This document shows, piece after piece, positions 18,216 to 42,732 of a stretch of DNA of 64,000 bases; the first letter of the stretch is position 1; each line of letters starts with the position of its first letter. The notes under the pieces were generated by a model. That model had not been told where the DNA came from. It saw only the letters and a program-made list of their open reading frames with translations, and ran no database searches. The position numbers were made by a program, and so were the translations under genes. This DNA comes from Lytechinus pictus. Taxonomy: Eukaryota. The stretch is from NCBI RefSeq assembly GCF_037042905.1, contig NC_087245.1, positions 4,528,001-4,592,000 of the forward strand. The letters run 5' to 3'.

Positions 18216-18799
18216 AGGAGAATGAAACCCTTGAAACCAGCTGAATCCATATCAAAGAGAAAAATCAAAGAAACATATTGTTGAAAGTTTGAGGAAGATT
18301 GAATGAATAATAAGAAAGTTATGAGCATTTGAATATTGAGATCACTAATGCCTTGTAGATCCTCCCATTGGCAATGCGACCAAGATCTGTGATGTCACAC
18401 ACGTACAACTCCCTCATTACTTTAGTACTTATTTCACTTATATTCTCACTTTTATAGAGTCTATCCCAAGGTGAGGTGTTCTCTTTATGAGAGGACAAGT
18501 ACAGAGGTTTCACAACATTATATCATTGATGAATCGTTTGTCATATGATTAGAATGAGCAAAAAGAGATGTTTTGGGGTATATTTTCAGTGTCCAAAAGG
18601 GGAGAGTTGTTCATCTGTGACATAATAGACCTTGGTCGCATTGCCAATGGGATGATCTCCATAGCATTAGTGATCTCGACATTCAAATGCTGATAACTCT
18701 TCTATTGCTAGTTCTATTTTACTCAAACTTTTGTTGATCTTATTCTTTGATTTTTCTGCTTTCACAAAAGCTTACTTGCTCCAAGAGTTTCATTCTCCT
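18216..18799. mobile_element. Kolobok-like MITE (TTAA TSD)
   Basis: TTAA|AGGAGAATGAAAC ... GTTTCATTCTCCT|TTAA, with long internal inverted arms. Confidence 0.8.
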
Positions 18800-18803
18800 T
18801 TAA

Positions 18804-19545
18804 CCCTTTAGCACCTGAACCGCCCGAGACCGCCCTTCCTATTTCACACTGAACCGCCTTTAACCGCCCGTACGTTTTCTTTGCGCTATAGTATCTCTTG
18901 TCTATGATTTACCGTGGTAATATTGCGTGTGCATACCGCATAGGTTGGCTGCTACATAGATCTGCATAGAAAAGTGTATGCTCCTATTGAGTATAATAGA
19001 GAAAAACCGATTGACATGCATCGGTGTGTAGCAAGTTCCAGACTGTTGCGCAGTCGATCTCAGCAAAGATGGCTGCGTCCATGTATCGGAAAACCACTTA
19101 CTTCGCCGAAGAAGCTCGGGCGTTGCTATATGTTCATCAAAACGTTGGATATCACACAGAGTGACATCTAGATGTGAGTTGGAATTAATTTTTGACATAT
19201 TTGATCCAAGATTTGGTGAAAACTTTAGTATTCTGTCAGTGATACTTTACATTTTTTTGAAGGCGTGGGACTGGGGCGGCTGAAACCCGAACTTTTGTTT
19301 TTTTTCTTCTCGCTCTGCAAACAATTGTCAAAGGTCAATATTCGTACATCTGATTGAACTTTGCCATGTACCATTCTATTCAACAGGTCCTATGCTACAA
19401 AATAAATATAACTTGTAATGAACAAAAGTAAATTTATAAAAAACTATTTCAATTTGTTTGGAACAATGCCTACTTATTACCAGTTTTATTGTTTCCTCCA
19501 GTGAGTAATTGCCATTATGCATAGGAATCTGTAGGTGCTATAGGG
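18804..19545. mobile_element. piggyBac-like non-autonomous element
   Basis: TTAA|CCCTTTAGCACCT ... AGGTGCTATAGGG|TTAA. Shares its left TTAA with the Kolobok-like MITE. Confidence 0.78.
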
Positions 19546-19814
19546 TTAAGGACTAGAGTGTGATACAATTTGTTCCAACTTGAATAACGATTTTTATTTC
19601 TTTTTCATATCTTTACCCACATTTTGCTGCACTCAACCCAGGTGAGGTGAATGGGTACCAGGCAGGATTACTTCCTTCAATGCACTAAGCCATTTAGCAG
19701 CTGCAGCTAAATCCGGGGTAATAAATAGGTCACCATTGAATTGCCAACTTCATGAAGATAATCAATGCCTTTATGCTTGATATCAGACCTTAAAATGACC
19801 TGTGTTACCTGTTA

Positions 19815-20196
19815 GACACCGTTCTCGCTACTTCCTAAAAGAAAGGTTGAAGCGATCTTCCAAACCAGTTCATAAAACCACCTCACGATCTCGTTTTCAA
19901 GATTGCTTTGCCTCGTTAAACTGGTTTTAGTGTGAGGACACAACCGTTCTTTGGAAAGTGATCTTCGCACATTTTGAGCGCTATTCCACACACTGTGTGT
20001 AGAATGCCTACGCTGCGGTATCGAATTTCGCGCAAAACATGTCACCCACTGAGAGCGTTCCCATAGCAACAAAATTGCTTTACATGAAGTGATTTTGAAA
20101 ACAACTTTCGTGTGATCAAGTGGGAACGCTATCAAAGCAATCTTCCAAACTGGTTTTCAGTAAACTAGTTTTAAAAAGCGTAATGAGAACGGTGTC
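19815..20196. mobile_element. PIF/Harbinger-like MITE (TTA TSD)
   Basis: TTA|GACACCGTTCTC ... GAGAACGGTGTC|TTA. Confidence 0.8.
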
Positions 20197-20199
20197 TTA

Positions 20200-21822
20200 G
20201 ACCCCTGTTACATCTGAGAGATTCCCTACCTCGGGCCGGCCCGGGGCCTACCTAGGGTCGGAAAGAAATCAGATGTAAACATCCCAAACCTACCTCGGGC
20301 CACCTTTTAGCGAACCTACCTGAGACAACATCCAGAGGTAGTCTCGGGTAGGTATCGGGCCGGCCCCGGTCCACCGATTTGTAGATGTAAACGCACACAA
20401 GCTTTCGAACCTATCTCGGTCCGTTCGCCAGCTGTCAAATTACGTCATAGCGCGCGCTATCCCCTCCCCAGCCCCGTCGTTCTTCTAATGTTTTGCGGCA
20501 TGCGAGATGTGAATTGTGATTGATAAAGTCTTTGATTTGAGTGGAAAGAAGCATGGACCTATTACGAATGGACATTCAACAAGAGCATTTTATGACCACC
20601 ACCTGTTTCCAGCTGTCAAAATCGCTGTCTAACCCTTAACTTTCTCTTTACGCGGTTTTTACGACGACCGCCCAGGGCAATTGTTTACACAAGCTCCTTT
20701 CGGTCATTGATCGTCACCGATCGATCACTGGCCCTCTTTCGACCAAAGTCGGTCATGTTTTAGCCCCGATTACCAATAGGGAAAGTCTCTACATTACCTA
20801 GAATGCAATGCGCAATTCATATCCGGTTTTTCAGTACATTATTTTAGGCTGTCTATAATGTGCGATTGTCGTCTGACCATAAAAAAAATTCCGTTAAATT
20901 TCATCAATCCTGTGGAATTTTGTGCCCAAATGAAAATCAACTTCTGACCGAAGGTAAGCGCTACTATCAACATCAATACTGTCCGAAAAAGATTCATTTT
21001 GAACGTTTTCCCGCACATTTCTCCGTCGAATTTCAACTGCTTTTTTGCCTTAGATATACGGATCTGCAAGGTGATGAAAATGCATTTCATGTGCGGTTGT
21101 TTGCGATGTACGTAAAAAATATGTTTATGCACGCCTGTTTTCTTGTTTCTGCTATCTTTTTCATAGCGCTAACGTTCGCTGCAGAGCGCTAACGTTCGCT
21201 GCTGTGCGTTACTTTTGATAAAGTGAACGAACAACATCGCAATGGGTAGGAGCAGCATACAATTGATTTCCGCTGTCCATCAGTGAGAGCGTGTTTTACG
21301 ACCGGCTTGATGGGCGTCAGCTGACAGCGCTCTGTTTATAAAAGGATTAGCGGTGACAGTCTTCGGCCCAAAGGAGGGGATTCGTCCATGAAAGAAGGAA
21401 GCATTTTAAACTTATCCTTTTCAAGTCGATCATATCTTCAACGACTGCTGGGATCATCAGCATTCTTCCAGAATCTCGGGTAAAGGTAAAGGTAAAGAGT
21501 CGTTTCGACTCTCTCTGGAAATGATCGGCACATGTCCCACCCTGTCATTTCTGTGTAGCAGCCGACGAGTGTAACGATATGTAAACAACTTCAATTAGCG
21601 CGCGCAAATTATTCAGAGCCTAGATCGAGAGCGCCCTTTGGTGTCAGCAATCGGATACCACTCGAAACCGTACCGATAGGGGAGGGAACGAACACTGTGA
21701 TGTAAACAGACCACATTTCGGACTCGGTCCGTTCGCGAAGCTAATCCACCAATAATCCAGTCAAGGTTGCAAGTGGACTCGGTCGGGTCACGGGTAGGAA
21801 ACTTTCAGATGTAAAAGGGGTC
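20200..21822. mobile_element. PIF/Harbinger-like non-autonomous element, 1.6 kb (TTA TSD)
   Basis: TTA|GACCCCTGTTACATCTGA ... TCAGATGTAAAAGGGGTC|TTA, with internal GATGTAAAC subterminal motifs. Confidence 0.82.
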
Positions 21823-21825
21823 TTA

Positions 21826-22880
21826 TTCTCACCTTTCCCTTTACCTATCCTACATACATGTAGTAAGGTCACTAATCTAGGTCACCTCAGACTCAAAACA
21901 ATTTCCATAGTCAGTCCAGGTCCTAACCATAAGCAATATACATTGTAGATCAAGGCCATGTTTGCTTACAAAGAGAACGTTCTCATCATACTTTCTAAAA
22001 CTTGTTTACTAGAAACCAGTTCAGGAAACCAGTTTGGAAGATAAACACACCATGATATTATCAAGTTAGCGGAGGGGTCGAGGTGCAGGTTGCAAAAGCA
22101 TGGTCTAAGAATATGTTGGAGAGTAAGAAATTAGAATATACATGACCAAAATAATAATATAAAACTGAAATGCAAATCAGCACTGGGAACAATGGAAAAG
22201 ACGATTTGGAATGATCACAAGCGAGGAAAGAAGCCCTGGGTGGTTACTTCCATTGATGAGCAGATACCATGCATTATTAATGCTTGATATTAGACCTTAA
22301 AACGACCTGTGTACCTATTATTTTCACCTTGCCCTAAGTTACTTATCCTACATGTAGTAAGGTCACTAATCTAGGTCACCTCAGACTCAATCAATTTTCC
22401 ATGGTCCATAGTCCGTAACCATAAGCAATATACATGTAGATCAAGGCTATGTTTGCTTACATTGAGATAAACCAGTTGAGGTCTATTAGCTTATAACAAT
22501 ATGGTACTATATACTCATATCACACTCTGGCGCTGAATTGTTGAGATACCGAAGATGAAAATCAACACTGGGAACTATGGAAAAGACAATTTGGAATGAT
22601 CACAAGCGAGGAAAGAAGCCCTGGGGGCCACTTCCATTGAGGAGAGGATACCATGCATTATTAATGCTTGATATCAGACCTTAGAACGACCTGTGTACCT
22701 ATTATTTTCACCTTGCCCTGAGTTACTTATCCTACATACATGTAGTAAGGTCACTAATCTACATGTAGGTCGCCTCAGACTTGAAACAATTTTCCATGGT
22801 CCATGATCCCTGACCATATTAAAAGCAATATAGATCAAGGCTATGTTTCCCTACATTGAGAAAAAAACCAGTTGACGTCA
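21826..22880. repeat. Tandem ~384-bp repeat (3 copies; the first starts at ~19773 and is split by two transposons)
   Basis: ATGCTTGATAT(C/T)AGACCTTA at 19773, 22280 and 22664. GTAGTAAGGTCACTAATCTA occurs three times. Confidence 0.85.
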
Positions 22881-23468
22881 CTTAGCCTACAACAATATGG
22901 GCCTACTTCAGTCAATCATGAGATGTGCACACTGTGCAATCTCGATGAAACTTCAAGCAGTCCATTAAAAAAAAATGTCAAAAATCTTATACAAATTATC
23001 TTTTATTCAACTTTACAACTTCAAATGTTTACATCATCAAGAAGAATTATTCTCTCAAATAAGCTAATTTTAAAATTTCTGCTTTCGAAGACCAATTACT
23101 ATTTTGGCTACAGTATATACAGAGAACCTTCCCTGGTGACTTATGGTTGGTTTGGAGGTGGCTGGTCACATATTAAATTATTCTAAACAAGTAAAAAAAA
23201 TTTACCTTGTGTTTTTTTATGCTCTGAATTTCTTTAGCATTCAAATTCAATCAAGTACTTCCATGGGTTATTCATCAATTTCGCCAAGTTTAATATCATT
23301 TTAAAGCTTTTTTTTCATATACAGATGAAGATATAAATACAGTGAGGAGAAAGAATAGATTGCATCATAAATGTTTAGCCCCAATTTCCATATCAGATGT
23401 CTTGCCATTTTGTCCATTCCCATTTACATGTAAATGGTTTCATATTTTCAACAAATGGAAGCAGATTA

Positions 23469-23611
23469 GGGCTCCATAACACAAAGGTTTGCAATCAATC
23501 GCTAAAAGCCAAAGACTGATCAAGATCATCGTTGCATGCGCACTCTGTTTGAAATACTGACCTAGAACCAATCAGTGGGGTTCTTTTGCAAACCTTTGTG
23601 TTACGGAGCCC
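23469..23611. mobile_element. Small palindromic MITE
   Basis: GGGCTCCATAACACAAAGGTTTGCAA is inverted as TTGCAAACCTTTGTGTTACGGAGCCC. Confidence 0.75.
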
Positions 23612-24402
23612 AGGTGAGTCATTATACATGTCAATGATCCGGGGGGGGGGGGGGGGGGGGGGCCACTTCCATTGACAAGTGGATACCATGCGCAACCATG
23701 GGGTCTCGAAAAGCACCCTAAACATGTATTTTCCATTTTCTGAAAATGCACCCCTTAACAAGTATTGGCGTGTGAAACTCTACCCTTAACAAGTATTGGA
23801 AACAAAACGATACTCTTGGCAAGTTCCCTGAATTGCATGACGAAAACATCCCATTAGAAACAGCACACCAGATTTTCACACTGTTACTGAAGATTTAATC
23901 CTGTAATCCTAAGACGCTTGTCCTTAATACAATTACTACTAATACACCTCTTCTATTGTGTTTCTGGTAATACTATAATCCCCTCCAAGTATTGTACTAA
24001 GCCGGACAGTTATATGCAAATTAACTTGTGATGTGGGGAGGGGGGGCTGTGCATACAATCATTCCCTGTATGTTATCAATAAGTTTTCCTAATTGGTGAA
24101 ATAAAATGAACTACATAATTTGTGGGGAGGATGTAATAGATTTGTATTCCTTCTATTTATCATCATTATCAACCAATGGAGCTATTTACACGATTTACCC
24201 CTGATAGTTTACCTCTCCTCCCTCTTCTATATTTAGTTCATACATTTTATATTTTAAATGCATTCTGCATTTTATATCTTCAAGAAGAATATATTTTCCT
24301 TAAATACTTTATAAAGTGAATATGAAGATAACAAACATCTGAATATAAGCAAACTTCTTTTAGTTTCATATTTAACAGTAAACATGCACTATGTATATTC
24401 AT

Positions 24403-24551
24403 CAGGGGCCGCGGAAGTGGGGGGACTATAGTGGGACTATAGCCCCCCCCCCCCAAAAAAAAAAAAAAAAAAAAAACGTAAAAAAATGATCATAGGATTG
24501 TGGATTTTTTTTGCATGGTCCCCCCACTTTGAAACCGTTCCGCACCCCCTG
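24403..24551. mobile_element. Small MITE (CAGGGG...CCCCTG ends)
   Basis: CAGGGGCCGCGGAAGTGGGGGGAC vs GTCCCCCCACTTTGAAACCGTTCCGCACCCCCTG, with TTCAT on both flanks. Confidence 0.55.
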
Positions 24552-24985
24552 TTCATAATAATAAGTTATAGCATTTATGAGGCCCGGTATGAGGCACAAA
24601 TTAACTTTGCCTATTCAATGGTGCAATAATTATATATGCAAGTATAGTTATAATTCACGTATATTATTCATACATGTAGTTATAATAAGCTGTGGTCCTA
24701 TACTAAAATAAATGTAAACAAAACTAACTGAAATGGCATTTAGCACCCCCTCACCCTTCCAGTTCAGAAGTGAAGGTCATAAAATTAAATTATTCACCAG
24801 AGATGTGTATAATACTTTGATCAACAAATGTGTATCCACACAAGGACGAGCAGATACAAAGCTTGCCGTTTCGAGAGGGCCTTTATAGAGTACAAGGAAT
24901 CATAGCTGCAAATTCAGACTTTTTAACTTGGAAGGGTTTCCACAGCAGACTACACTTAGACCACTATTATCATCTACCATCTTAA

Positions 24986-26488
24986 AGGACAAGTCTAATA
25001 CAACAAAATAGTTTATATGAATAAAACGAGAAAAATTCAACTTGCATTGAAAATCGCATTGAAATCAGATGTAAAATAAGAAAGTTATAACATAACAAAA
25101 CACTTGGGCCTATGTGCACATCCTGCATAGTCGATAGGCAAATTAGAGGACTGATGACATTATCCAGTCACTATTTCTTTGTATTTCGTTGTATTAAATA
25201 CAAAATATTCGAAATATTCTCCCAATTGTTATGTTAACCAAAATTTCATATTCTTCTTACTTAACATCCAATTTTATTGAAATTTTCATGGTTACATTTG
25301 TATTTATGATTTATTAAAATCATCATTTTTTCTGGGGTGGTCATGACCTTTAAGTCAGTTGAATAGAAACCGGTTTTAAAGTTAAAGGACAAGTTCATCT
25401 CAATAAAAAGTTGATTTGAATAAAAACAGAAAAATCTAACAAGCACAATACTGAAAATATCATCAAAATCGGATGTGAAAATAGGAAAGTTATGACATTT
25501 TAAAGTTTCGCTTCGATTTTACAAAATAGTTATATGAACATCCCGGTCATTATGCAAATGAGGGAACTGATGACATCACTCACTCACTATTTCTTTTGTA
25601 TTTTGCTATATGAAATGTGAATTTTCTTCTCATTGTCCTGTGAAACAAAGTGTTTTTTGCCTTGAACATGTGGAATTACCATTGTTTAACAGTTATGATT
25701 CAGTAAAGTTGGTCCTTATTGTCAAATCTGTTAAAATCTAAATATTGTATAATTCATACAATAAAAATACAAAAGAAAGAGTGAGTGAGGGACATCATCG
25801 ATTCTCTCATTTGCTTGTGACTAAATTGTGCATATAACTGTTTTGTAAAAAATAAGCGAAACTTTAAAATGTCATAACTTTCTTACTTTTCATCCGATTT
25901 GGATGAAATTTTCAGCATTATGCTTCTCTGATTTTTCTCTATTGAATAAAATCCGGGGGGGGGGGGGGGGGGCGGCACTCAGTATATAATGCATAGTGGG
26001 TATGTGCCGCGAAGGGGACCCCAATTTTTACACTAAAATTTCCGTTCCAAGGCAAAGCATTTTCGTCTTCTTGAGAAAAAAAAGAAATCCGATCCAAAGC
26101 ATATCATTTTGTTCTTATCGTGAAAAAAGAAAGAAATCCGCTCCAAAGCTTCGCAAATTTTCCGTTACGCCGTTCCGGTCGCATTGATCTGCTACAATGA
26201 GCCGCGATTTTGGTGAAAAGCGGCCGCGGAGCGCTGCCCGACTATCGCCGCTTCGCTAGCGCACCCGGCGCCTGTGCCGCCGGGCAAGCTGCATGCACGT
26301 ATGCCCGTTCCATAGGGATGCATAAACATTTGTAGTTCCGAAACCTGTTCCGAGGAAACCTCCTTTTACAATTTGCCCGCTCCAAAGCCCCCGTTTTTTG
26401 TCTCGCCAGCGGCACATCCCTACTACTTTTTTGGTCGAGTGCCCCCCCCCCCGGATTAATAAACATGTTTCTGAGGTGGACTTGACCT
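24986..26488. mobile_element. Two adjacent Kolobok-like MITEs (24986-25349 and 25386-26488); the second contains a CCGGG-ended MITE (25953-26454)
   Basis: TTAA|AGGACAAGT ... (A/T)TGACCT|TTAA termini occur twice, with homologous bodies. The nested element has CCGG(G)n...CACTC / GAGTG(C)nGG termini. Confidence 0.72.
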
Positions 26489-26769
26489 TTAATGGGAATG
26501 CTCGAAACATGCAGTCTTGGAATTGATCATTTAAAGAGTAGAACAGGCTGAATATATGATTTTGACTGAAGAATAATCAGATAAACATCACAAAACATTG
26601 AAAATTCAATCATGCTACATGTACATCTAGTTGTTAAAATGCTAGGCCCAACAGTAAGAAATTAAAGTTAGGCCTTGTAAATGTATTATTTTCCAAACTC
26701 GGGCGGGAGTCGATCGAGTCTTGCGCAATAATCGCGATCGCGAGCATTCGTGCTCCATCGCATCTAGGG

Positions 26770-26947
26770 GTGTGTATTTGAGTTTTGTCAGACGTGTATC
26801 AATCAGGTATGCTTATTTACGTCTGGGACCGACCTTTATTAACGTCACTATCCGAAAGACATCATCAGGGCTCGAACCTCGAACCTCTGCATCAATTTGT
26901 AACTTCCCCACAGCTTGGATTACAGGCGCACGCCACAACGCCCAGTT
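26770..26947 (-). mobile_element. SINE with a 7SL/Alu-domain-like 5' head
   Basis: Minus strand reads ACTGGGCGTTGTGGCGTGCGCCTGTAATCCAAGCT (27/35 identical by eye to the 7SL 5' end GCCGGGCGCGGTGGCGCGTGCCTGTAGTCCCAGCT). This is followed by a B-box-like GGTTCGAG, GTCTTTCGGAT..GACGTTAA and a CA-rich tail. Confidence 0.7.
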
Positions 26948-27362
26948 GCATATTAGTATTGGATTCAGACCCTACATTCCATTTTTTTAAGATAGCTAAA
27001 CCCAATTAGCCGATCCATAAATAGATGTACAATATTTATATATCGATATATATATTTATAATTAATTTGAGGATAAAATATATTTAAAGTTAATATAAGA
27101 AGAAAATCTTTACAAAATTTTGAATAAGTTTGTTATAGAGGCTACAGATTCGACGAGAGGGATTTCCCTGAGAGCAGTATTGAGGTAAAGGAAGTGTGCT
27201 AATTGGATAACAAAAAGCTAGGAATTCCATGAAAAGAGTCTTTACAAAGACCGTCTTTTCATGTCGCCGATTTGCTATGATGTGTTGAACGGTTGCGGGT
27301 GGTACGTGTGGGTGCGGGGTGCTCTGGACGGGGTTCTCGGAGGAAAAAAGGCAATACAGAAT

Positions 27363-27394
<32 letters not shown>

Positions 27395-28299
27395 GAATAT
27401 CAAGGGGAAAAAACACCAAGGAGATTCTCCGCGTTGAATTTGAAAGCAAATACAACAAGAAATATTTTTACAACATGCTTAAGTTTTTAAGAATCGAGTA
27501 GGGCCCGCTCTTCCAACAATCTAATCTTGCTATATTAGCTAAAAAGATAAACTTTTTACTTTGCTTTATTTTCAACAAACACAGATGAACTTTCATGATC
27601 GCAAATTGTAATTGGCTGTCGAACCTCTTTTATCTGGTGTTGACTATAATGACCGAACTTCCCGGGAAAATGTTGATGTATGAATAAACACTAGCATTGT
27701 ATTTGTATTTCAATGTTCTCTCTAAGCACCGTTTGAGCATTTATATTGGAATGGGTACATAGTATATCAAAGATCAAACATATCCCGAAAATTCAGCACT
27801 TTCCATGCCCCATGTTTCCATGTTTCAAATCTGAAAGATTTGTTAAAGCTTCTTAAAATGATCCCTGCGTGTTGGCATGAAAAATTATATTTTCAGCCCC
27901 TTATGCCTAAGGGTTTGTTACAAATCAATTTTACAGAGACATAGGTCTAAAATTCTAAAATGTAAATGGGCGAAGCCAAAATGAAGAAAACAATAAAACA
28001 TTATCAAATCAACGTACAAGAAACCCACACAAACACGAAACAAAAAAGTGTGCATGCCATAGGGTAAAACAAAAAGGAAAGCATAAACAAAAAGAAAGTG
28101 TGCAGAAAAAAAAGAATAGTGAAAACTTAGATTTTATAGCACGTACTTGGCGACATAAACGGAATACTGCATTGACAAATACTTTATATACGTATATAGG
28201 GCCTACATATATTTATTTTTACTACGTGGTAGATTTTTTTTTTGGGGGGTGGGCCTTAAAACTCCCCAGAGCCGACCCCCCCCCCCCCCCCCCCCCGAA

Positions 28300-31200
28300 A
28301 CAACGCCTGCATGTTGGCATGCAATGCTTGGAAGCATATTCATTTTTTTTATTGTGAGTTTGCTTTTTGTCATTATTATTTTTTTTTTTTGGGGGGGGGT
28401 GGAATATCCCATCATATCATCCAAGTTTAAAAGTTCACATCATTTACCGGATAGCAAACATGTTCTCGTAATTGCTGTTTTTATTTATCATATTCATTTA
28501 TTCGGTTTAAAACAAATAATCGTTTCTGCTAGTGGAGTGTAAAAAAATAAAATGTGGAATCTCCGTTGATTAATTCACTTTCAAATACCACAGATTCAGT
28601 TCATTTTTTCCAAATTATTTTTCTTAAAACCTCCATGAGAACCGAATCTATCAACTTGCGGGTCTGCGTAGAATAGACTACAACTCGGGTTTCACTCACC
28701 AAATTCAGCCTCTCGCCTGCTAACCGACTCTAGCAACTTGCGGGTATGCGTAGAATTGACTACAACTCGGGTCTAACCCACCAAATTCAGCCTCTCGTCT
28801 GCTGGGCTTATATGGGCTAGCGCTTGTATGTCAGCGTTTTAAAAACATGACAGGTTTTGGTCCGAAAAACCTTTCCTTTTATCCAAGGATGACAAATTCC
28901 TATCGCAATTTTCCCCCGAATTTTCCCCATGCAAGAGAAACTATGATTACCCTTGTTTTAAATTGAAATACATTGCCGACAAGCATTCATATTCAATTCT
29001 TTTTTATTGTGAGTTTGCTTTTTTTTGGGGGGGAGGGTATCCTATATCCGACGACTATTTACTTCAAAGTATTTTGATTGACATTTTCCTGTTCAGTTTC
29101 ATGCTAATTGTATATAATAGTTACTTTTGTTCACATGATTTTCCAGAATATTTCCTCGGAAATGTTGCTGTTTTTATTTATTTCATTCATTTATTTGGTT
29201 TAAAATAAATCATTGTTTAAATTGATTCTTCCGCTAGTGGAGTGCAAAAAAAAATCTGGAACCTCCGTTGATTAGTTCACTTGAAAATACCCAAGATTCA
29301 GTTCATTGTTTTCAAGTTATTTTTCTTAAAACCTCCATGAGAACCGACTCTAGCAACTCGCGAGTCTGCGTAGAATAGACTACAACTCGGGTCTAACTCA
29401 CCAAATTCAGCCTCTCGTCTGCTGAGCTTATCATGATAGGTGACTGTGTGGGATAGCGCTTGTATGTCAGCGTTTTAAAAACACATGATAGGTTATGGTC
29501 CTAAAACCTTTCTTTTATCCAAAGATGTTAAATTCAGCTATCACAATTCTTCCCATGCAAGTGAAACTTTGATTAACCTTGTTTTAAATTGATATAAATT
29601 GCCGACAAGCATTCATATTCATTTTTTTATTGTGAGTATGCTTCTTTTTTTTTTTGGGGGGGGGGGGTATAAGAATATCCTATATCCGACATGTTCAAGA
29701 CTATACGTGCTTTTTACTGTAAAATAATTTGATTGACATTCTCCTGTTCAGTTTCTTGCTAATTGTAATTGTTACTTTTGTTCACATGATTTACCAGAAT
29801 ACTTTCCTCGGAAATGTTGCTGTTTTTATCCATGCATTTATTTGGTTTGAAATAAATCCTTGTTTAAATTGTTTCCTCCGCTAGTGGAGTGTAAAAAATA
29901 AACTCTGGAATCTCAGGTGATTATAGTTCATTTTAAAAATACCCAAAGATTCAGTTCATTGATTTCAAGTTATTTTTCTTAAAACCTCCATGAGAACCGA
30001 CTCTAGCAACTTGCGGGTCTGCATAGAATAGACTAAAACTCGGGTTTAACACACCAAATTCAGCCTCTCGTCTGCTAGGCTTATCATGATAGGTGACTGT
30101 GTTGGCTACTCGGGTTTAACACACCAAATTCAGCCTCTCGTCTGCTAGGCTCATATAGCGCTTGTATACTATGTCAGCGTTTTAAAAACACATGACAGGT
30201 TTTGGTCCTAAAACCTGTCCTTTTATCCAAAGATGTTAATTCAGCTATCGCAATTTTTCCCATGGAAGTGAAACTATGATTACCCTTGTTTCAAATTGAA
30301 ATACATTGCCGACAAGCATTCATATTCATTTCTTTTTTATTGTGAGTTTGCTTTTTTTATTGGGGGGGGGGGTAAGAATATCCTATATTCGACATGTCCA
30401 AGACTACGTACTATTTACTTTAAAGTATTTTGATTGACATTTTCCTATTCGGTTTCTTGCTAATTGTAATTGTTACTTTTGTTCACATGATTTACCAGAA
30501 AATTTCCTCGGAAATGTTGCTGTTTTTATTTATTTATTTCATTTATTTGGTTTGAAATAAATCCTTGTTTAAATTGTTTCTTCCGCTAGAAAAGTGTAAA
30601 AAATAAAATCTGGAATCTCCGGTGATAAGTTCATTTTGAAATACCCAAAGATTCAGTTCATTGTTTTCAAGTTATTTTTCTTAAAACCTCCATGAGAACC
30701 GACTCTAGCAACTTGCGGGTCTGCATAGAATAGACTAAAACTCGGGTTTAACACACCAAATTCAGCCTCTCGTCTGCTAGGCTTATCATGATAGGTGACT
30801 GTGTTGGCTACTCGGGTTTAACACACCAAATTCAGCCTCTCGTCTGCTAGGCTCATATAGCGCTTGTACTATGTCAGCGTTTTAAAAACACATGACAGGT
30901 TTTGGTCCTAAAACCTGTCCTTTTATCCAAAGATGTTAATTCAGCTATCGCAATTTTTCCCATGGAAGTGAAACTATGATTACCCTTGTTTCAAATTGAA
31001 ATACATTGCCGACAAGCATTCATATTCATTTCTTTTTTATTGTGAGTTTGCTTTTTTTATTGGGGGGGGGGGGTAAGAATATCCTATATTCGACATGTCC
31101 AAGACTACGTTCTATTACTTTAAAGTAATTTGATTGAAATTTTCCTGTTCAGTTTCATGCTAATTGTATTTGTTACTTTTGTTCACATGATTTACCAGAA

Positions 31201-33770
31201 TATTTCCTCGGAAATGTTGCTGTTTTGATCCATGCATTTATTTGGTTTGAAATAAATCCTTGTTTAAATTGTTTCTTCCGCTAGAAAAGTGTTAAAAATA
31301 AAACTGGAATCTCCGGTGATAAGTTCACTTTGAAATACCCAAAGATTCAGTTCATTGTTTTCAAGTTATTCTTCTTAAAACCTCCATGAGAACCGACTCT
31401 AGCAACTTGCGGGTCTGCGTAGAATAGACTAAAACTCGGGTCTTACTCACCAAATTCAGCCTCTCATCTGCTAGGCTTATCATGATAGGTGACTGTGTAG
31501 GCTACTCGGGTTTAACACACCAAATTCATCCTCTCGTCTGCTAGGCTTATCATGATAGGCGACTGCGTGGACTAGCGACAGGTTTTGGTCCAAAAACCTT
31601 TCCTTTTATCCAAAGATGTTAAATTCATATCGCAATGTTTCCCATGCAAGTGAAACTATATTAACCTTGTTTTAAATTGAAATACATTGCCGACAAGCAT
31701 CCATATTCAATTATTTTTTTGTTAATTGCTTTTTTTTTTTGGGGGGGGGTAAGGATATCCTATATCCGACATGTTCAAGACTACGTTCTATTACTTTAAA
31801 GTAATTTGATTGAAATTTTCCTGTTCAGTTTCATGCTAATTGTATTTGTTACTTTTGTTCACATGATTTACCAGAATATTTCCTCGGAAATGTTGCTGTT
31901 TTTATCCATGCATTTATTTGGTTTTAAATAAATCCTTGTTTAAATTGTTTCGTCCGCTAGAAAAGTGTTAAAAATAAAACTGGAATCTCCGGTGATAAGT
32001 TTACTTTGAAATACCCAAAGATTCAGTTCATTGTTTTCAAGTTATTCTTCTTAAAACCTCCATGAGAACCGACTCTAGCAACTTGCGGGTCTGCGTAGAA
32101 TAGACTAAAACTCGGGTCTAACTCACGAAATTCAGCCTCTCATCTGCTAGGCTTATCATGATAGGTGACTGTGTAGGCTACTCGGGTTTAACACACCAAA
32201 TTCAGCCTCTCGTCTGCTAGGCTTATCATGATAGGCGACTGCGTGGACTAGCGACAGGTTTTGGTCCAAAAACCTTTCCTTTTATCCAAAGATGTTAAAT
32301 TCATATCGCAATGTTTCCCATGCAAGTGAAACTATATTAACCTTGTTTTAAATTGAAATACATTGCCGACAAGCATCCATATTCAATTATTTTTTTATTA
32401 ATTGCTTCTTTTTTTTTTGGGGGGGGGGGGGGTAAGGATATCCTATATCCGACATGTTCAAGACTACGTTCTATTACTTAAAAGTAATTTGATTGAAATT
32501 TTCTTGTTCAGATTCATGCTAATTGTATTTGTTACTTTTGTTCACATGATTTACCAGAATATTTCCTCGGAAATGTTGCTGTTTTTATTCATGCATTTAT
32601 TTGGTTTGAAATAAATCCTTGTTTAAATTGTTTCTTCCGCTAGAAAAGTGTAAAAAATAAAATCTGGAATCTCCGGTGATGAGTTCATTTTGAAATACCC
32701 AAAGATTCAGTTCATTGTTTTCAAGTTATTTTTCTTAAAACCTCCATGAGAACCGACTCTAGCAACTTGCGGGTCTGCATAGAATAGACTAAAACTCGGG
32801 TTTAACACACCAAATTCAGCCTCTCGTCTGCTAGGCTTATCATGATAGGTGACTGTGTTGGCTACTCGGGTTTAACACACCAAATTCAGCCTCTCGTCTG
32901 CTAGGCTCATATAGCGCTTGTACTATGTCAGCGTTTTAAAAACACATGACAGGTTTTGGTCCTAAAACCTGTCCTTTTATCCAAAGATGTTAATTCAGCT
33001 ATCGCAATTTTTCCCATGGAAGTGAAACTATGATTACCCTTGTTTCAAATTGAAATACATTGCCGACAAGCATTCATATTCATTTCTTTTTTATTGTGAG
33101 TTTGCTTTTTTTATTGGGGGGGGGGGGGGTAAGAATATCCTATATTCGACATGTCCAAGACTATACGTTCTATTACTTTAAAGTAATTTGATTGAAATTT
33201 TCCTGTTCAGTTTCATGCTAATTGTATTTGTTACTTTTGTTCACATGATTTACCAGAATATTTCCTCGGAAATGTTGCTGTTTTTATCCATGCATTTATT
33301 TGGTTTGAAATAAATCCTTGTTTAAATTGTTTCTTCCGCTAGAAAAGTGTTAAAAATAAAACTGGAATCTCCGGTGATAAGTTCACTTTGAAATACCCAA
33401 AGATTCAGTTCATTGTTTTCAAGTTATTCTTCTTAAAACCTCCATGAGAACCGACTCTAGCAACTTGCGGGTCTGCGTAGAATAGACTAAAACTCGGGTC
33501 TAACTCACCAAATTCAACCTCTCGTCTGCTAGGCTTATCATGATAGGTGACGGTGTTGGCTACTCGGGTTTAACACACCAAATTCAGCCTCTCGTCTGCT
33601 AGGCTTATCATGATAGGTGACTGTGTTGGCTACTCGGGTTTAACCATGGACCTATTTCGTAATAGGTAATAGCTCCATGGTTTAACACACCAAATTCAGC
33701 CTCTCATCTGCTGGGCTTATTATGATAGGTGACTGTGTGGTCTACTCGGGTAGTAACAAACCAAATTCAA
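28300..33770. repeat. Tandem array of ~650-700-bp units, about 8 copies
   Basis: AAAACCTCCATGAGAACCGA recurs at ~28627, 29327, 29981, 30683, 31377, 32053, 32737 and 33435. Internal ~60-bp subrepeats CACCAAATTCAGCCTCTCGTCTGCT. Confidence 0.95.
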
Positions 33771-33774
33771 GTTC

Positions 33775-36700
33775 TTGTCACATACATCTTAGATAAATGA
33801 ACAAATTAACTATCAAGAACGTTTTAAGATTGTTTCGACGGAACTGTCAGGCACGTTTAAAAAAAATTGAAGTGCCTACAAATATGAAAGTACATTTGAT
33901 GTACCTTTCTCTATGAACTCCCGTTCACCAAAAAAATATATAAAACAGGCATTGCTCTGATAACGACAAAGAAAAATAAAACAGATAGAAGTCACAAACA
34001 TCTTAGATAAATGAACAAACTATCAGGAACTTTTTAAAGTTGTTTCGAGTTGCTCACAATTAAAAATATATTATATATATATATATATATACCCTTCGTT
34101 ACCACGGTCATGAACGCCGTTGTCCTAAAAGAATAGTAAATTACGCAAGAGAAATAAAACAAAATGGAAGTCACAAACATCTTCGATTATCGACAAACTT
34201 TCATGAACGTTTAAAAAATTGAAGTGCTTACAAATATAAAAGTAAATTTTATGTACCTTTCTTTATGAACTCCCATCCTCCAAAAGGAAATATAATAGAT
34301 GCAAGGAAAATGAAATAAAATAAAAGTCGCAAACATCTCAGATTCATGAACGAACTATCAGGAACGTTTTGAAATTATTTTTAGCTGCTCATAAGTAAAA
34401 ATATATTTTATATACATTTTGTTAAAGAAACTCCCGTTCTCCAAAAAGAAATATAAAAGACAGGGATGGAAAATAAAACAGAATAGAATTCACAAACATC
34501 TTAGATTAATGTACGACCTTATAACGTTTTAAAATTATTTTGAGGTGCTCACAAGTAAAAATGCATTTTATACTCTCGTTATGAATTCCCGTTCTCCAAG
34601 ATGAAATAATTATAAAAGACGTATATTATTCGGATAACGGCTGAAATAAAACAGGAAAGAAGTGAAGAACATCTTAAATAAATGAACAAACTATCAGGAA
34701 CGTTTCAAAATTATTTCGAGTTGCTCACATTTTAAATATACCTTTCGTTTTGAACGCCGTTCTCCTAAACGAATAGTAAATTACGCAAGAGAAATAAAAC
34801 AAAATAGAAGTCACAAACACCCGGCATAAACATCTTCGATTAATGAACAAACTTTCAGGAACGTTTTAAAAAAAGAATTGAAGTGCTTATAAATACAAAA
34901 GTAAATTTTATGTACCTTTCTTTATGAACTTCCGTTCTCCGAAAGGAAATATAAAAGACGCAATTAAAATAAAACAGAATAAAAGTCGCAAACATCTCAG
35001 ATTCATCAACGAACTATCAGGAACGTTTTAAAACTGTTTTGAGCTGCTTACAAGTAAAAATATAATTTATGTTATTTACATTTCGTTAAAAAAACTCCCG
35101 TTCTCCTAAAACAAAGATAAGGGACGGAAGGAAAATAAACAGAATAGAAGTCACAAACATCTTAGATAAATGAACAAACTATTAAGAACGTTTTAAATTT
35201 ATTTTGAGGTGCTAACAAGTAAAAATGCATTTTATATATCTCTCGTTATGAACTCCCGTTCTCCAAAATGAAATATAAAAGACGTATATTATTCGGATAA
35301 CGGCTGAAATAAAACAGGAAAGAAGTCACAAACATCTTAAATAAATGAACAAACTATCAGGAACGTTTCAAAATTATTTCGAGTTGCTCACATTTTAAAT
35401 ATACCTTTCGTTTTGAACGCCGTTCTCCTAAACGAATAGTAAATTACGCAAGAGAAATAAAACAAAATAGAAGTCACAAACACCCGGCATAAACATCTTC
35501 GATTAATGAACAAACTTTCAGGAACGTTTTAAAAAAAGAATTGAAGTGCTTATAAATACACAAGTAAATTTTATGTACCTTTCTTTATGAACTTCCGTTC
35601 TCCGAAAGGAAATATAAAAGACGCAATTAAAATAAAACAGAATAAAAGTCGCAAACATCTCAGATTCATCAACGAACTATCAGGAACGTTTTAAAACTGT
35701 TTTGAGCTGCTTACAAGTAAAAATATAATTTATGTTATTTACATTTCGTTAAAAAAAATCCCATTCTCCTAAAACAAAGATAAGGGACGGAAGGAAAATA
35801 AACAGAATAGAAGTCACAAACATCTTAGATAAATGAACAAACTATTAAGAACGTTTTAAATTTATTTTGAGGTGCTAACAAGTAAAAATGCATTTTATAT
35901 ATCTCTCGTTATGAACTCCCGTTCTCCAAAATGAAATATAAAAGACGTATATTATTCGGATAACGGCTGAAATAAAACAGGAAAGAAGTGAAGAACATCT
36001 TAAATAAATGAACAAACTATCAGGAACGTTTCAAAATTATTTCGAGTTGCTCACATTTTAAATATACCTTTCGTTTTGAACGCCGTTCTCCTAAACGAAT
36101 AGTAAATTACGCAAGAGAAATAAAACAAAATAGAAGTCACAAACACCCGGCATAAACATCTTCGATTAATGAACAAACTTTCAGGAACGTTTTAAAAAAA
36201 GAATTGAAGTGCTTATAAATACAAAAGTAAATTTTATGTACCTTTCTTTATGAACTTCCGTTCTCCGAAAGGAAATATAAAAGACGCAATTAAAATAAAA
36301 CAGAATAAAAGTCGCAAACATCTCAGATTCATCAACGAACTATCAGGAACGTTTTAAAACTGTTTTGAGCTGCTTACAAGTAAAAATATAATTTATGTTA
36401 TTTACATTTCGTTAAAAAAACTCCCGTTCTCCTAAAACAAAGATAAGGGACGGAAGGAAAATAAACAGAATAGAAGTCACAAACATCTTAGATAAATGAA
36501 CAAACTATTAAGAACGTTTTAAATTTATTTTGAGGTGCTAACAAGTAAAAATGCATTTTATATATCTCTCGTTATGAACTCCCGTTCTCCAAAATGAAAT
36601 ATAAAAGACGTATATTATTCGGATAACGGCTGAAATAAAACAGGAAAGAAGTCACAAACATCTTAAATAAATGAACAAACTATCAGGAACGTTTCAAAAT

Positions 36701-37850
36701 TATTTCGAGTTGCTCACATTTTAAATATACCTTTCGTTTTGAACGCCGTTCTCCTAAACGAATAGTAAATTACGCAAGAGAAATAAAACAAAATAGAAGT
36801 CACAAACACCCGGCATAAACATCTTCGATTAATAAACAAACTTTCAGGAACGTTTTAAAAAAAAGAAGTGAAGTGCTTATAAATACAAAAGAAAATGTTA
36901 TGTACATTTCTTTACGAACTTCCGTTCTCCAAAGGAAATATAAAAGACGCAATGAAAATCAAAAAGGATAAAAGTCGCAAACATCTCAGATTCATCAACT
37001 AAGTATCAGGAACGTTTTAAAACTGTTTTGAGCTGCTTACAAGTAAAAATATGAATTATGTTATTTTACATTTCGTTAAAAAAAACTCCCGTTCTTCAAA
37101 AACAAAGTAAGAGACGGAAGGAAAATAAACAGAATAGAAGTCACAAACATCTTAGATATATGAACAAACTATAAGAAACGTTTTAAAATTGTTTTGAGTT
37201 GTTCACAATTTAAAATATATTTTATGTACCTTCCGTTATGAACGCCGTTCTCCTATAAAAGAATAATTAATTACGCAAGAAAATAAAACAAAATAGAAGT
37301 CACAAACATCTTAGAACTATCAGGACGTCTTAAGTGCTTACAAGAATAAAAGTAAATTCTATTTACCTTTCGTTATGAACTCCCGTTCTAAAAAATACGT
37401 GTAAAAGATGCATTATTCACAAACATCTAAGATTAATGATCGAGCTATCAGGAACGTTTTAAGATTGTTTTGTGTTGGCTAACCGGTAAGATATATATAT
37501 ATTATATATATATATATATATACATGAGTTGGCTAACATGTAAAATATACTCATACAACTCTTGTCCCCTCCTCCCCCCCCCAAAAAAAAAAATATATAT
37601 ATATATCAATGAATCGTTAATACTCTGACAGCAGTGGAAATGAATAAAACAGAAGAAAAGTCACAAACATGCATCTTAGATTAATAATCGAACTATCAGG
37701 AGCGTCTTAAACCTGTTTTGAGGTGCTAAGCTATTAAAGTAAATATAAATGTAATATACTTTTCATTTTGAAATCCCGTTCTCCAAAAATAAATATAAAA
37801 TACGCATTATTCTGACGACAGAAGAATAAAAAACAGAATCATAAGTCATT
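33775..37850. repeat. ~165-bp AT-rich satellite with a 663-bp 4-mer higher-order repeat
   Basis: Monomer marker GTCACAAACATCTTAGA...GAACAAACTATCAGGAACGTTT. Diagnostic CCGGCAT at 34821, 35484, 36147 and 36810 (period exactly 663). Confidence 0.95.
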
Positions 37851-39454
37851 GGGTCCGATCAAGACCAAACATACTTTGACTTCTTTATTGAAAAGGGGCC
37901 CCAGCGGAGTACGGACCGATACCACCATGACCACCGCTGGTCATGGATACCACACACAAAACATGAAGCTATTAACAGAGTTTCATGCACAAAATGTTCG
38001 TACGCACTGCACACACAATCTTCTAATGGGCTGGTACTAGGTGAGAGCTAACTGTCTTTTGCTACTTAAAGAGGATTATCCCTAATAGGATTACCGAGGA
38101 AAGACATAGGACTGGAAACTTAATCCTCAGAAAGACCCTGTGGAATGTGGTGTCTTGAACCCGAGTTAGCAAGTTATATTAGGGCAAAGGCCTAACAGGC
38201 CGTTTTCGTCATGTGACCCCCTAAACAATTACAGCGATATTTATATTGTTATGTCACGGACGTCGGTTTTACCTTCACCTACATCATTGGGTTTAGTACA
38301 GCCCCACCTCTCACATCTCACGCAAATCGTACTCTAAACACGTAGTGTTGACTCTTGGGGCAGAAGTACATCCTTCATAAAACATTTTAGTCTTAATTTT
38401 TTACATCCACGCAAATTTGACCCTAAATACATAGCTATCATACAAAAAATAGATACCCTTTTTTCATTATTTAAGTGTTTTTGACACCCTTATCACGTTA
38501 CGTACATATTATGGCCTATCTTGAAAAAGACATCCTTTTTACATGTTTTTTTAGTCGCGCATGGTATCCACTCCTCAATGTAAGTGCCCCCCCCCCCGGG
38601 TCAATGATTTACATCCTTACATCCCATTCTGTGACTGATTTACTTTCAGTCTGTTTTCTGCCCTTTAATATTTTCATTTTGTTTCTAACACATAGGTAAA
38701 AATTTTACAAGCTTGGGTGAATGTTTTAAAAAGGAACAATATGTTGTCAGTCCCACCTCATCCCTTCATTTCCCAAATATTTCATCTTGTGAATGCAAAC
38801 ACCTTGATATATGTTTTTTTAGTGAAACATATAAACAATATTATAATATAACAGAAAATGAAAGTATATAGGTATCAAAATTATAGATGTTCATGCAAAA
38901 TCATGCATGTCATTGTCAGCTAAATGTACACAGCCAAAATATACTACACAATCAAATTAACAAAGGAATGAAGATGCACTGACAGCACTGTAAGTCCAAA
39001 TCTTTTAAGAGGATGGTTGCTTAGCAACAATAGCTTCCTATATATATCGATGGATGGACTTAAGATGGCTGGCTAACAAGTTTGATAGAATGACACGCAG
39101 TATCTAGGTCGCTCTATAATTGAAGTGGAATCTAATATCCAAGCCATGCAAATGGAGACAAAGCCTAAAGGCATTCTGAAAATTATGCAATTTTCTTTTA
39201 GCAATGCAATTACCCCAAGACCAGAGTTACAGATATATCAAAAAAACATTTTGGAAACAGTATTGAGGTAAAAGTACATGTATTGGCCTACTTTATATGT
39301 TTGTTTTCACATAATGTAAAGACAAGCAATAGCAACCAAAAATATTTCAATACTAAAGTCAATATTCAATGTTTAACAAACTGCACACAGAGAATCAAAC
39401 ACATAACTAATTTGAAATGAATCCTAGTTAAAGTGAACATGTTTCATAATGTTA

Positions 39455-41097
39455 AGGCCTGGTCACACCGCCCGAGCGTTGTTGGAGCGGTAGGGAGAGA
39501 GGGTCGAATTTCGACAACGCTCGTCACCGCTCACAAAATTTAGGAAAAAATCGAAAACATGGGCGTTGCCTTAGCGGTGCACCGCTGAAGCCAGCGTAGC
39601 TTTAGCGTTGGTTTAACGGTGGCGAGCGGTCGCGAGCGTTGGTTTAGCGGTGACTCGAGCGTTGATAGAGCGGAGTTCTGCGCATGCGGGCGTCGCACAG
39701 TGGGCCAGAATGAGTTGAAAGTGCGCCAAAATTATTTTCCGTGTTATATTTTTACTTTAACATGTAGATTAAGGGTAATTTTGGGCGTAGAATCGACTAA
39801 ACATAATTTAAAGCCCATATGACGTCACTTTGATACCAAATTTTGATTGGCTGCTTAAAACCTATCTGTGAAAAGAAAAAATTCCCCAAACAATGTGAAG
39901 TATATAAACTTTGTGTTATGTGTTACTTTAAGATTGATCAGAGTGAATGTTGGTTTATGCTTCTCACATGCCTAAAAAGTGTGTATGAGATCCTGAAAAT
40001 AATTTTATGGCATCAAAATGATCATTAGATTAAAAAAATACTTTAAAATCTGAAAAATATTAACCGTGCTTTATTAAGCTGTGTAGACTTGGTTAAAACG
40101 CGGAGTATATAACACAACAAATATTTTACTATGATGAGGGTTTTTGGCTGAAATTATTCTACAAGTAACTTTTATCTCTGGAAGAGGGCTGGGTAGCCCT
40201 TATATGCGTTATCAACCTTCATTTTGTTTACATTATGCCCAGAATTTCATGGAATGGAAGGGGAATTGTCCCCGCCGTGCAAAATTGCAAAAATGAACAG
40301 CAATGTACACCCCACACGGTGCGCTGCGATGACTGCACGGAATAAAAAAGACCGTTTTTGAACAGGTTTTTGGGGTGATGTCTCAAGTAAAATCGGCTCT
40401 AACATAAAAACGGGCAGCTAAATTTGGTATTGACTTAAAGCTTAGACACCGGGCGAAATGATGATAGAATTTAAACGGAAATCCACGGAAATCAAAACGT
40501 TTCTCATGTAAATGCAAAAAACATGATTATCAGCCCATTTTGATTCCAAATGAGCTCCTTACTCATTTCTCCCCGTAGTTATAGCCAAATTCTGGTTCCG
40601 CTCCGACACCTCCATACCAACGCTAAACCAAGGTTCATCACCGCAATGGATCGCTACTTTAACGCCCACCACCTTTCCAGCAATCCCGTGTCCGCTCGGA
40701 AAACGCTTACAACCGCTCCACCAAAGTTTGTGAACCGTTTAATCACCGGCCGGGCAACACTGGTGAAGCAGCGGTTGTCCAGCGTTCAAGATTTCTGCGT
40801 TGGCCTAGCGGACCCAAGCGTTCACGAACTTTCATCTAGCGGTGCCAAACTTTGACTGGGCGTTGTTAGAGCGGTAATCAACTTTGCTGGAGCGGAAAAT
40901 TGCCCGCTCCTCACCGCTCGCAATATTTTGAGCAGCTCAAAACTTTCGGAGCGGTAGGAGGGACCATCAGCGGTGGCCGAGCGTATTCGGCGTTGCCTTA
41001 ACGAAGGCCAACTTTGGTTAAACGGTGGTGAACGGTAGCGAGCGGTGATGATTTTTTCTCTCCGCTCCAACAACGCTCGGGCGGTGTGACCAGGCCT
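39455..41097. mobile_element. PIF/Harbinger-like non-autonomous element (TTA TSD)
   Basis: Perfect TIR AGGCCTGGTCACACCGCCCGAGCGTTGTTGGAGCGG at both ends, TTA on both flanks, and AGCGGT-rich subterminal repeats. Confidence 0.88.
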
Positions 41098-41137
41098 TTA
41101 ATCTTTTATAGGGTGGAGGTGCTGCAGCTCAGTGGAT

Positions 41138-41627
41138 GGTTACACTTCGTAATTCCAAAGGTTCTTTATTCCGAAGGTTCGTAATTCCGAAACACGTAAA
41201 TTGCCTATACCTCGATGTTCGTTAATCCGAAAACGTAATAGGGTTCGTTAATCCGAACATTTGTGGCGTTATTCCGAAGGTTCGTTATTCCGAAGGTCCG
41301 ATAATCCGAAAACGAAATAAGGTTTGATGTTCCGAAGGTTCGTTAATCCGAAAACGAAATAAGGTTCGTTGTTCCGAAGGTTCGTTAGTCCGAAAACGAA
41401 ATAAGGTTCGTTAATTATTTAGTTTTCGGACCAACGAACCTTCGGAATTACGAACCTCATTTCGTTTTCGGATTAACGAACCTTCGGAATTACGAACCTC
41501 ACTTCGTTTTCGGACTAACGAACCTTCGGAATTACGAACCTTCGGAAATACGAACCTTCGGAATAACGAACCTTCGGAATATCCGAACCTTCGGAATAAC
41601 GAAGCTTCGGAATTATAAATGTATGCG
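41138..41627. mobile_element. Foldback-type MITE made of TTCCGAAGGTTCGT repeats in inverted arms, inserted in a SINE
   Basis: CAGTGGAT is duplicated at 41130-41137 and 41628-41635. Repeat orientation flips at ~41415. Confidence 0.85.
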
Positions 41628-41830
41628 CAGTGGATATACGTCTCTGCATCTGTTGCTTTGAATCACAAGGTCTATGGGTTGGAATCCCACTGCAGCACTC
41701 ACATCCTTTGGAATTTACAGTGTACCTAAATTTGCTACTCTCCACCCAGGTGTAGTAAATGGGTAACTGGTAGGAAGAAATTCCTTGAATGCTTGAGCAC
41801 CTGGTAAGAGTAGCTGTGTTTAAAGCCAGG

Positions 41831-42690
41831 TTTTATGTTTCATCTGCATAGCAGAGCGAGACTATATGCGTACATGTAGCTTTTCCGATGGCAATGGCGT
41901 CATCGTCCACATCAAATCTTAACTGAAGGTTAAGTTTTTGAAATGTCATCATAACTAAGAAAGTATATCGGCCTAGTTCATGAAAGATGGGCATAGTGGT
42001 TATCAAGTAATACTGAACATCTTGCCAGAGTTTGATGTCACATGACCAAGGTCAAAGGTCATTTAGGGTCAATAGACCATGTTGGGGGAACAACATCAAA
42101 GTCTTAAACGAAGGTTAAGTTTTTTAAATGTCATCATAACTGTATAAGGGTAATCAAGTACCGATATTACTGAACACCCTGCCTGAGTTTCAGGTCACAT
42201 AACCCAGGTCAAAGGGCATTTAGGGTCAATGAACTTTGGTCATATTAGGGGTATTTGTTGATTCCCATCATAACTTTTAAAACTTAGGGATCTGGTTCAT
42301 GAAACTTGGACATAAGAGTAATCAAGTAGCACTGAACATCCTTTGTGAGTTTCAGGTCACATGACCAAGGTCAAAGGTTATTTGACCAAGGTTGACCAAG
42401 GTTTATTTTTTTAAATATCATAACTCTGAAAGTATAAGGATCTAGTTCATGAAACTTGGACATAAGAGTAATCAGGCATCAGTGAATATCCTGCGTGAGT
42501 TTCAGGTCACATGACCATGGTCAATGAACTTTGGCTGTGTTGGGGGTATTTGTTGAATTGCCATCATAACTGAAAAGTTATGGATCTAGTTCATGAAATA
42601 TGGACATAAATTTAAGGGTAATCAAGTATCCCTGATAATCTTGCACAAGTCTTTGGTCAAACAAAGGTAAAATGTCATTTAGGGTCATTT
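41831..42690 (+). mobile_element. Helentron/HINE-like element, copy 3 (opposite orientation, diverged, truncated)
   Basis: Starts TTTT..CATCTGCATAGCAGAGCGAGACTAT; GGTCAAAGGTCA / GGTCACATGACC ~120-bp repeats. Confidence 0.68.
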
Positions 42691-42732
42691 TATTCAACAC
42701 AGTCAAATATGATATCAGATTATTTTACTCAC

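Follow-up and report, generated by a model that had tools for sequence, protein, structure and literature searches.

A 14.4-kb non-coding terminal inverted repeat element with two satellite arrays in a kynureninase intron of Lytechinus pictus

The locus and the boundaries of the element

The DNA analysed here is a stretch of 64,000 nucleotides of Lytechinus pictus (assembly GCF_037042905.1, contig NC_087245.1, positions 4,528,001 to 4,592,000), hereafter called the window; all positions below are those of the window. It is AT-rich, repeat-filled animal DNA that contains a kynureninase gene on the minus strand, as exon 2175-2321 resembles solved kynureninase structures (E 1.5e-15). The exon order is predicted from the reading frame; the two exons flanking intron 2 (Table 1) join in frame, leaving an intron of ~31.7 kb. 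Inside this intron lies the subject of this study, an element bounded by terminal inverted repeats (TIRs) and carrying two satellite arrays, A and B. An earlier note on this DNA, made from the letters alone, had put the element at nearly half of a housekeeping-gene intron, and the measured share is 45% of kynureninase intron 2.

As shown in Table 1, the element is nested inside a CCGGG-ended miniature inverted-repeat transposable element (MITE). The TIR, CATGACGAAAAC, occurs once in the window (23836-23847), and so does its inverse (38202-38213); the two pair at 12/12 bases, and the extended pairing covers 18 of the first 22 bases. A TG stands outside both element ends, and no longer duplication fits (best 3/7). 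The arms of the host MITE (23653-23696 and 38554-38597) are 89% complementary, and its 9-bp target-site duplication (TSD), GTCAATGAT, is perfect. The TIRs, the TG duplication and the surrounding MITE had all been proposed in the earlier note, and their coordinates are confirmed. The nesting of a TIR element in a MITE is a real and well-bounded observation. Pieces resembling an end of the host MITE also occur at 22237-22260 and 22623-22656, within a local duplication of ~390 bp.

Table 1. Positions of the element, its parts and its surroundings in the window
Feature	Position	Strand	Remark
Kynureninase intron 2	11029..42732	-	between exons 42733-42853 and 10946-11028
Host MITE 9-bp TSD GTCAATGAT, left copy	23630..23638	+	
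Host CCGGG-ended MITE, left half	23639..23835	+	197 bp, TG at its end
Non-autonomous TIR element	23836..38213		14,378 bp, TG duplication on both flanks
Left end of the element	23836..23985	+	12-bp TIR; ACACCA.ATT motif at +30; TAAT[A/C]C repeated six times between +61 and +146
Nested CAGGGG...CCCCTG MITE-like piece	24403..24555 (approximate)		TTCAT on both sides; read from sequence
TTAA-ended MITE family, an older and decayed copy	24982..25354		
Nested TTAA-ended MITE	25382..26492		long TIRs, arms 81-89% alike; split by the second CCGGG MITE
Second CCGGG-ended MITE	25953..26454		related family, decayed TSD
Array A	28433..33776	+	5,344 bp, ~690-bp units with 70-bp sub-repeats
CATG...CATG hairpin, P-type excision scar	33645..33679		35 bp, 7-bp duplication; absent from sibling units
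Array B	33777..37840	+	4,064 bp, ~165-bp monomers
Weak hairpin after array B	37843..37882		z -1.4; an X4 contig departs at 37882
CATGACCA...TGGTCATG scar	37926..37945		20 bp, 8-bp duplication
CATG...CATG scar	37962..37987		26 bp, 7-bp duplication
Right end of the element	38064..38213	-	TIR, 25-nt array-A motif at 38143-38167, three TAATCC repeats
Host CCGGG-ended MITE, right half	38214..38599	+	386 bp, TG at its start
Host MITE 9-bp TSD GTCAATGAT, right copy	38600..38608	+	

Subterminal repeats

The two ends resemble each other beyond the TIR. TAATCC is the top shared 6-mer of the two 200-bp ends, with 3 + 3 copies where 0.28 would be expected (p 5e-7, uncorrected for the 2,080 words compared). 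When TAAT[A/C]C is counted, there are six copies at the left end and three at the right end, and only 1 of 227 background bins, a background that includes the left end, reaches six. Furthermore, a degenerate subterminal block aligns positions +30 to +117 of the left end with +61 to +145 of the right end, and one of 2,000 shuffles scored equal. With these further motifs common to both, the two ends belong to one element. The excerpt of PMC8978399 describes multiple short subterminal repeats for CACTA elements, with units of 10-20 bp, as compared with 6 bp here. The subterminal repeats at both ends, like the nested MITEs and the scars described below, go beyond the earlier note.

Two satellite arrays

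Both arrays are close in size to the earlier description (~5.5 kb of a ~690-bp array and ~4 kb of a ~165-bp higher-order array). Array A consists of seven full units, 653-702 bp in length, whose aligned parts are 89-100% alike, together with partial units, of which a deleted one extends back to ~28335. A recent duplication of three units is evident in array A, where a shift of 2,054 bp matches at 1,042 of 1,068 positions. In array B, 24 monomer starts could be anchored, with a spacing of mostly 156-179 bp. A unit of four monomers (663 bp) is present in four copies at 34608-37253, 93-100% alike; the three central copies differ at 1-7 sites, and diverged monomers lie at both edges of the array. 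Because the central 663-bp copies are near-identical and the shifted match in array A is so good, it is clear that both arrays expanded recently. The earlier suggestion that the element incubates satellites is borne out in that both arrays grew inside it.

Are the arrays related to each other, or to the element itself? Arrays A and B are mutually unrelated and are not inverted, and a foldback of the Tetris or Galileo type was rejected on these grounds. Kinship of array B with the 163-bp arrays found elsewhere in the window was also rejected, the monomers being unrelated. On the other hand, a 25-nt motif of the 70-bp sub-repeat of array A matches the right arm of the element at 22/25, while the best of 300 shuffles reached 20. 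All 16 matches of the merged 25-nt motif are inside the element, and in array A the motif faces inward like an end; its core has 17 inward-facing copies. In a global alignment of an array-A unit, CATGA lies 62 nt before the motif, as compared with 60 nt in the real right end. This suggests that each array-A unit may hold a whole decayed right end, significance having been tested for the 25-nt motif alone. Array A probably arose from a duplicated segment that contained a copy of the element's own end sequence. This motif, common to array A and the end of the element, is the most interesting detail of the locus.

Independent contigs at the right end

A search of public runs with 28400-38213 returned eight runs (here X1 to X8), none of which held half of the words of the query. 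The word shares were 0.38 in X7, 0.34 in X8, 0.11 in X1 and 0.05-0.06 in X2-X6; these shares are not evidence for the copy number or the distribution of the arrays. Four of the eight runs, all of them in the form of contigs, were compared with 37608-39450 alone. This gave 11,895 pieces and 690 loose ends, of which the best 32 and 21, respectively, underlie the results below.

In X4, a contig of 319 nt has five differences to 37988-38213, stops following the element exactly at 38213 and continues with 28 unlike letters. The right end thus has a second insertion site, as seen for this end in one of the four runs, and the element has moved, as the earlier note had claimed for a cut-and-paste element. 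It is the sole contig over the right arm, with a depth of 49.9 as compared with 47.4 for a unique intron contig. Because the two depths are close and the arm has no other coverage, a low copy number of the element is suggested, depth itself not being a copy number.

The host MITE was also recovered from independent contigs. Among the contigs listed, at least three MITE contigs in X7 and X8 begin exactly at 38214, and among the loose ends listed, one weak consensus (two contigs, agreement 0.63) has a single TG at the MITE junction. Intact MITE copies had been predicted to join at this junction, and the X7 and X8 contigs do resume at 38214, the weak consensus giving a single TG. A 4-bp CATG TSD with a correspondingly shorter TIR was rejected, since the X4 contig matches through 38213 and the MITE contigs begin at 38214. 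The right arm and the unique intron flank are uncovered in X7, X8 and X1, and the flank adjoining the MITE is uncovered in X4.

Another contig of X4 runs along the end of array B, ~90% alike over 37608-37882, leaves at 37882 and continues with 190 unlike letters. Two causes would explain this departure: a further insertion within the X4 copy, or a separate carrier of array B that ends at this point. Patterns for the TIR, the rejoined MITE junction and the array-A motif had 0 matches in viral contigs, metagenome contigs and prokaryote genomes, which are not expected to contain animal DNA, so that these zeros are no evidence.

Coding content and nested insertions

The element has seven stop-to-stop frames of at least 90 aa, the longest of which is 132 aa. 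None of 18 six-frame read-through translations (23836-31400, 33400-35300 and 36900-38213), which took in the unique parts and representative repeats, matched Pfam at E 0.01, and Rfam had 0 matches in the window. The cargo is thus without a recognisable open reading frame, as had been claimed.

The left 4.6 kb of the element contains nested MITEs. The TTAA-ended MITE at 25382..26492 is presumably Kolobok-like.

Three very small hairpins with CATG ends lie in or after the arrays, and they have the form of the P-element excision junctions printed in the available part of PMC2895639. Among 84 CATG pairs of the window, three are scars flanked by 7/8-bp repeats, all of them inside the element, as compared with none of 221 control pairs with other palindromic ends; that all three should lie inside the element has a probability of ~1% by chance. 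The ends of one scar match the TIR at 7/8. If the third scar is disregarded, ACAC[C/A]AAAT immediately follows the duplicated target in two scars, a possible sign of target preference. In X4, a different, shorter piece lies between the same 8-bp repeats at the scar 37926-37945, while the scar 37962-37987 is absent and one copy of the 7-mer is present instead.

A non-autonomous transposon with passenger arrays

The best overall explanation, to which I give a probability of roughly 55%, is that the element is a low-copy, non-autonomous cut-and-paste DNA transposon with passenger arrays. A transposase encoded elsewhere would bind the short TIR and the clustered subterminal repeats, excise the element and insert it with a 2-bp stagger, as enzymes of the CMCT clade (EnSpm/Mirage/Plavaka-like) do. 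The element would then have landed in an older MITE within kynureninase intron 2. Because the ends alone would matter in cis, the interior may gather passengers, here MITEs, P-type scars and the two tandem arrays. Array A would have started as the duplicated segment proposed above; the seeds of both arrays were probably inside at the time of the jump, and both arrays would have grown since then by unequal exchange. The edge units of array A are 89-91% alike and the edge monomers of array B 69-91%, whereas the two right-arm copies differ by ~2%. Because the edge units are more diverged than the right-arm copies, it is on balance probable that the seeds of both arrays predate the last jump. That the TIR element transported the arrays is favoured here, with reserve.

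As for the superfamily, the comparisons in this and the following sections refer to excerpts of PMC12730594, PMC2895639, PMC7776569, PMC3573991, PMC7492417 and PMC4079207. The element ends with CATGA and not with the CAC..GTG of EnSpm/CACTA elements (PMC12730594). In CMCT elements, the ends are mostly CA..TG and the TSDs 2-5 bp long, and fungal PlavakaB elements have CATCA ends with a 2-3-bp TSD (PMC12730594). The present element has CA..TG ends and a TSD in the CMCT range, its length being taken from a single insertion site. P elements have a 7-8-bp TSD, and the flank bases here match at just 3/7 and 0/8. On balance, the element more probably belongs to CMCT than to a P-like superfamily. A CMCT partner transposase would have C(2)C and H(3-4)H motifs, and a P-type partner a THAP domain. 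The EnSpm/CMC label of the earlier note is only possible: the 2-bp duplication fits it, the subterminal repeats do so loosely, with shorter units, and the CAC terminus does not; the translations of the element that were compared with Pfam contained no transposase.

Several observations weigh against a CMCT-type transposon that moved its arrays. The first 10 bases of the element match the end of the fly P element at 9/10 (PMC2895639), and its interior contains P-type scars that have CATGA ends and are flanked by 7/8-bp repeats. The second insertion site is known from one contig in one of four runs, the other three being without coverage of the right arm. The junction evidence for a duplication of exactly 2 bp is thin. 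Nowhere were array B and the right arm joined in a single contig; of the X4 contigs, one leaves at 37882 and another begins at 37887.

Alternative explanations

The alternative that survives best, a tentative but serious one, is that a shorter TIR element jumped and that the arrays were brought in afterwards by a nested carrier and grew in place; such a carrier could be a Helentron/HINE with array B, or A plus B, as its core repeats. The TIR element would then never have moved the arrays. The X4 contig reaches 37882, the last base of the hairpin after array B, before its 190 letters of other DNA, and the left 4.6 kb is visibly nested. HINEs of the oyster have 140-180-bp monomers, sometimes with two arrays in a row (PMC7492417). 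Over 37732-37855, the contigs sum to a depth ~40 times as high as on the right arm; however, such a depth can stem from 24 monomers, and summed contig depth is not a copy number. The hairpin itself is not significant (z -1.4, as compared with -5.5 for the control). A pair of subterminal inverted repeats (subTIRs) of 11-12 bp bracketing array A or B was not found, as there were only seven scattered 12-mer matches, while the same test found the pairs of two elements with 163-bp arrays, both of which gave runs of overlapping inverted matches. A HINE subTIR pair around the arrays was thus rejected. The monomers of array B are unrelated to the 163-bp monomer, and the motif common to array A and the TIR arm also argues against a foreign carrier.

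It is more doubtful that the element is a derivative of the P superfamily with an original 7-bp TSD that lost 5-6 bp on one side through a deletion, so that an apparent TG duplication was left. This alternative bears on the superfamily alone, and either history of the arrays would agree with it. Besides the fly-like end, the location inside the element of all three CATG scars of the window, including the one whose ends resemble the TIR, speaks for it. The subterminal motif lies at unequal distances of 30 and 61 from the two ends, like the binding sites of P at 9 and 21 bp (PMC7776569), and the right flank starts with the first three bases of the left 7-mer. However, an extra deletion is needed that happens to restore the MITE junction, and the flank match is poor. 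Multiple short subterminal repeats are known for CACTA elements (PMC8978399, in part), while the P review, in the text available, gives each end a single 10-bp site and a single 11-bp internal repeat.

A further proposal, which goes beyond the CMCT-type transposon favoured here and is improbable, is that the element represents an undescribed animal CMCT-type lineage with a 2-bp TSD, whose CATGA ends are P-like and differ from each other by about three helical turns. Such a lineage would build its own satellite through tandem amplification of a copy of the transposase-binding end and would move the whole 14-kb unit with its arrays. If this self-made, self-moving satellite is real, the array may help to recruit the transposase.

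Finally, it is most improbable that the TIR match is due to chance or that the region is an assembly chimera: the TIR is merely 12 bp long, perfect inverted 12-mer pairs number 887 in the region (the long ones listed being mostly homopolymer runs) and no read or contig spans the whole element, but the probability that chance would place a perfect 12-mer pair within 20 bp of each MITE break is ~2e-4 and this one lies exactly at the breaks, further motifs are common to both element ends, an independent contig ends at 38213, the TSD of the host MITE is perfect and the window contains no N.

Comparison with known systems

Satellite-bearing DNA transposons are already in print, and the present element is a clear new example and not a new kind of element. 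One close likeness is Jozin, a CACTA element of Chenopodium quinoa that measures 16.5 kb; a captured satellite array of 5.5 kb (32.5 x 171 bp) lies close to one of its ends and recurs in other copies (PMC8978399). Both are large TIR elements with subterminal repeats and satellite DNA. In contrast, the plant element Jozin contains coding sequence, ends with CACTA and has a 3-bp TSD (PMC8978399), while the present element has no open reading frame, CATGA ends, a 2-bp duplication and two arrays. PlavakaB resembles it in having CA..TG termini, but is described from fungi and defined by its transposase (PMC12730594), whereas the element here has CATGA ends and is known from non-coding sequence alone.

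The P element of Drosophila shares the CATGA end (9/10) and the unequal spacing of internal motifs, but has an 8-bp TSD and a 31-bp TIR as compared with 2 bp and 12 bp here (PMC7776569, PMC2895639). Galileo has tandem repeats in its TIRs, with a 7-bp TSD as compared with 2 bp (PMC3573991). The Cg_HINE Helentrons of the Pacific oyster are non-autonomous and have central arrays of 140-180-bp monomers, sometimes two in a row; they also have subTIRs and a 3' palindrome and lack a TSD, and around arrays A and B no subTIRs were found and the hairpin after array B is weak (PMC7492417). Tetris of Drosophila virilis is likewise non-autonomous and bounded by TIRs, and its own repeats gave rise to satellite arrays; it is a foldback with the repeats within long TIRs, while the arrays here are internal, mutually unrelated and on one strand (PMC4079207).

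The literature search, with Repbase and Dfam outside it, found nothing on this element or on echinoderm elements with CATGA ends and a 2-bp TSD. Because Repbase, Dfam and supplements were excluded from the search, the family may already be catalogued.

Are satellites born in transposons, or do they merely hitch a ride? The element is a well-bounded case for this question: array A shares sequence with the element's own end, array B is possibly of foreign origin, and the growth of both continues within the intron of a metabolic gene. As a large insertion at low copy number, it also shows a single event nearly doubling an intron. An autonomous partner, if found, would settle whether CATGA ends and a 2-bp TSD mark an animal CMCT lineage.

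Other repeats of the window

Kynureninase intron 2 contains further repeats. A segment of 320 bp occurs in it twice on the same strand (38955-39276 and 11204-11525, 76% alike). A 1.6-kb element with a perfect 37-bp TIR lies at 39454-41098, followed by a MITE at 41146-41613 that consists of inverted 16/42-bp repeats. Another kynureninase intron has a 61-bp repeat in 80 copies with 97% identity (4463-9341), after which a purine-rich 84/169-bp array follows at 9559-10772. Three elements with 163/192-bp arrays are present at 286-1150, 16910-18085 and 41930-42690. The first two have an inverted subTIR pair of 12-15 bp, and the second also has a strong terminal hairpin, features that are HINE-like.

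Broken retroelement frames with reverse-transcriptase-like text were found at 50146-52218; they are Penelope-like, their 3' part is duplicated, and they give a weak GIY-YIG match (E 0.004). At 57260-59390, two inverted arrays of a 57-59-bp unit face each other and form a foldback-like structure.

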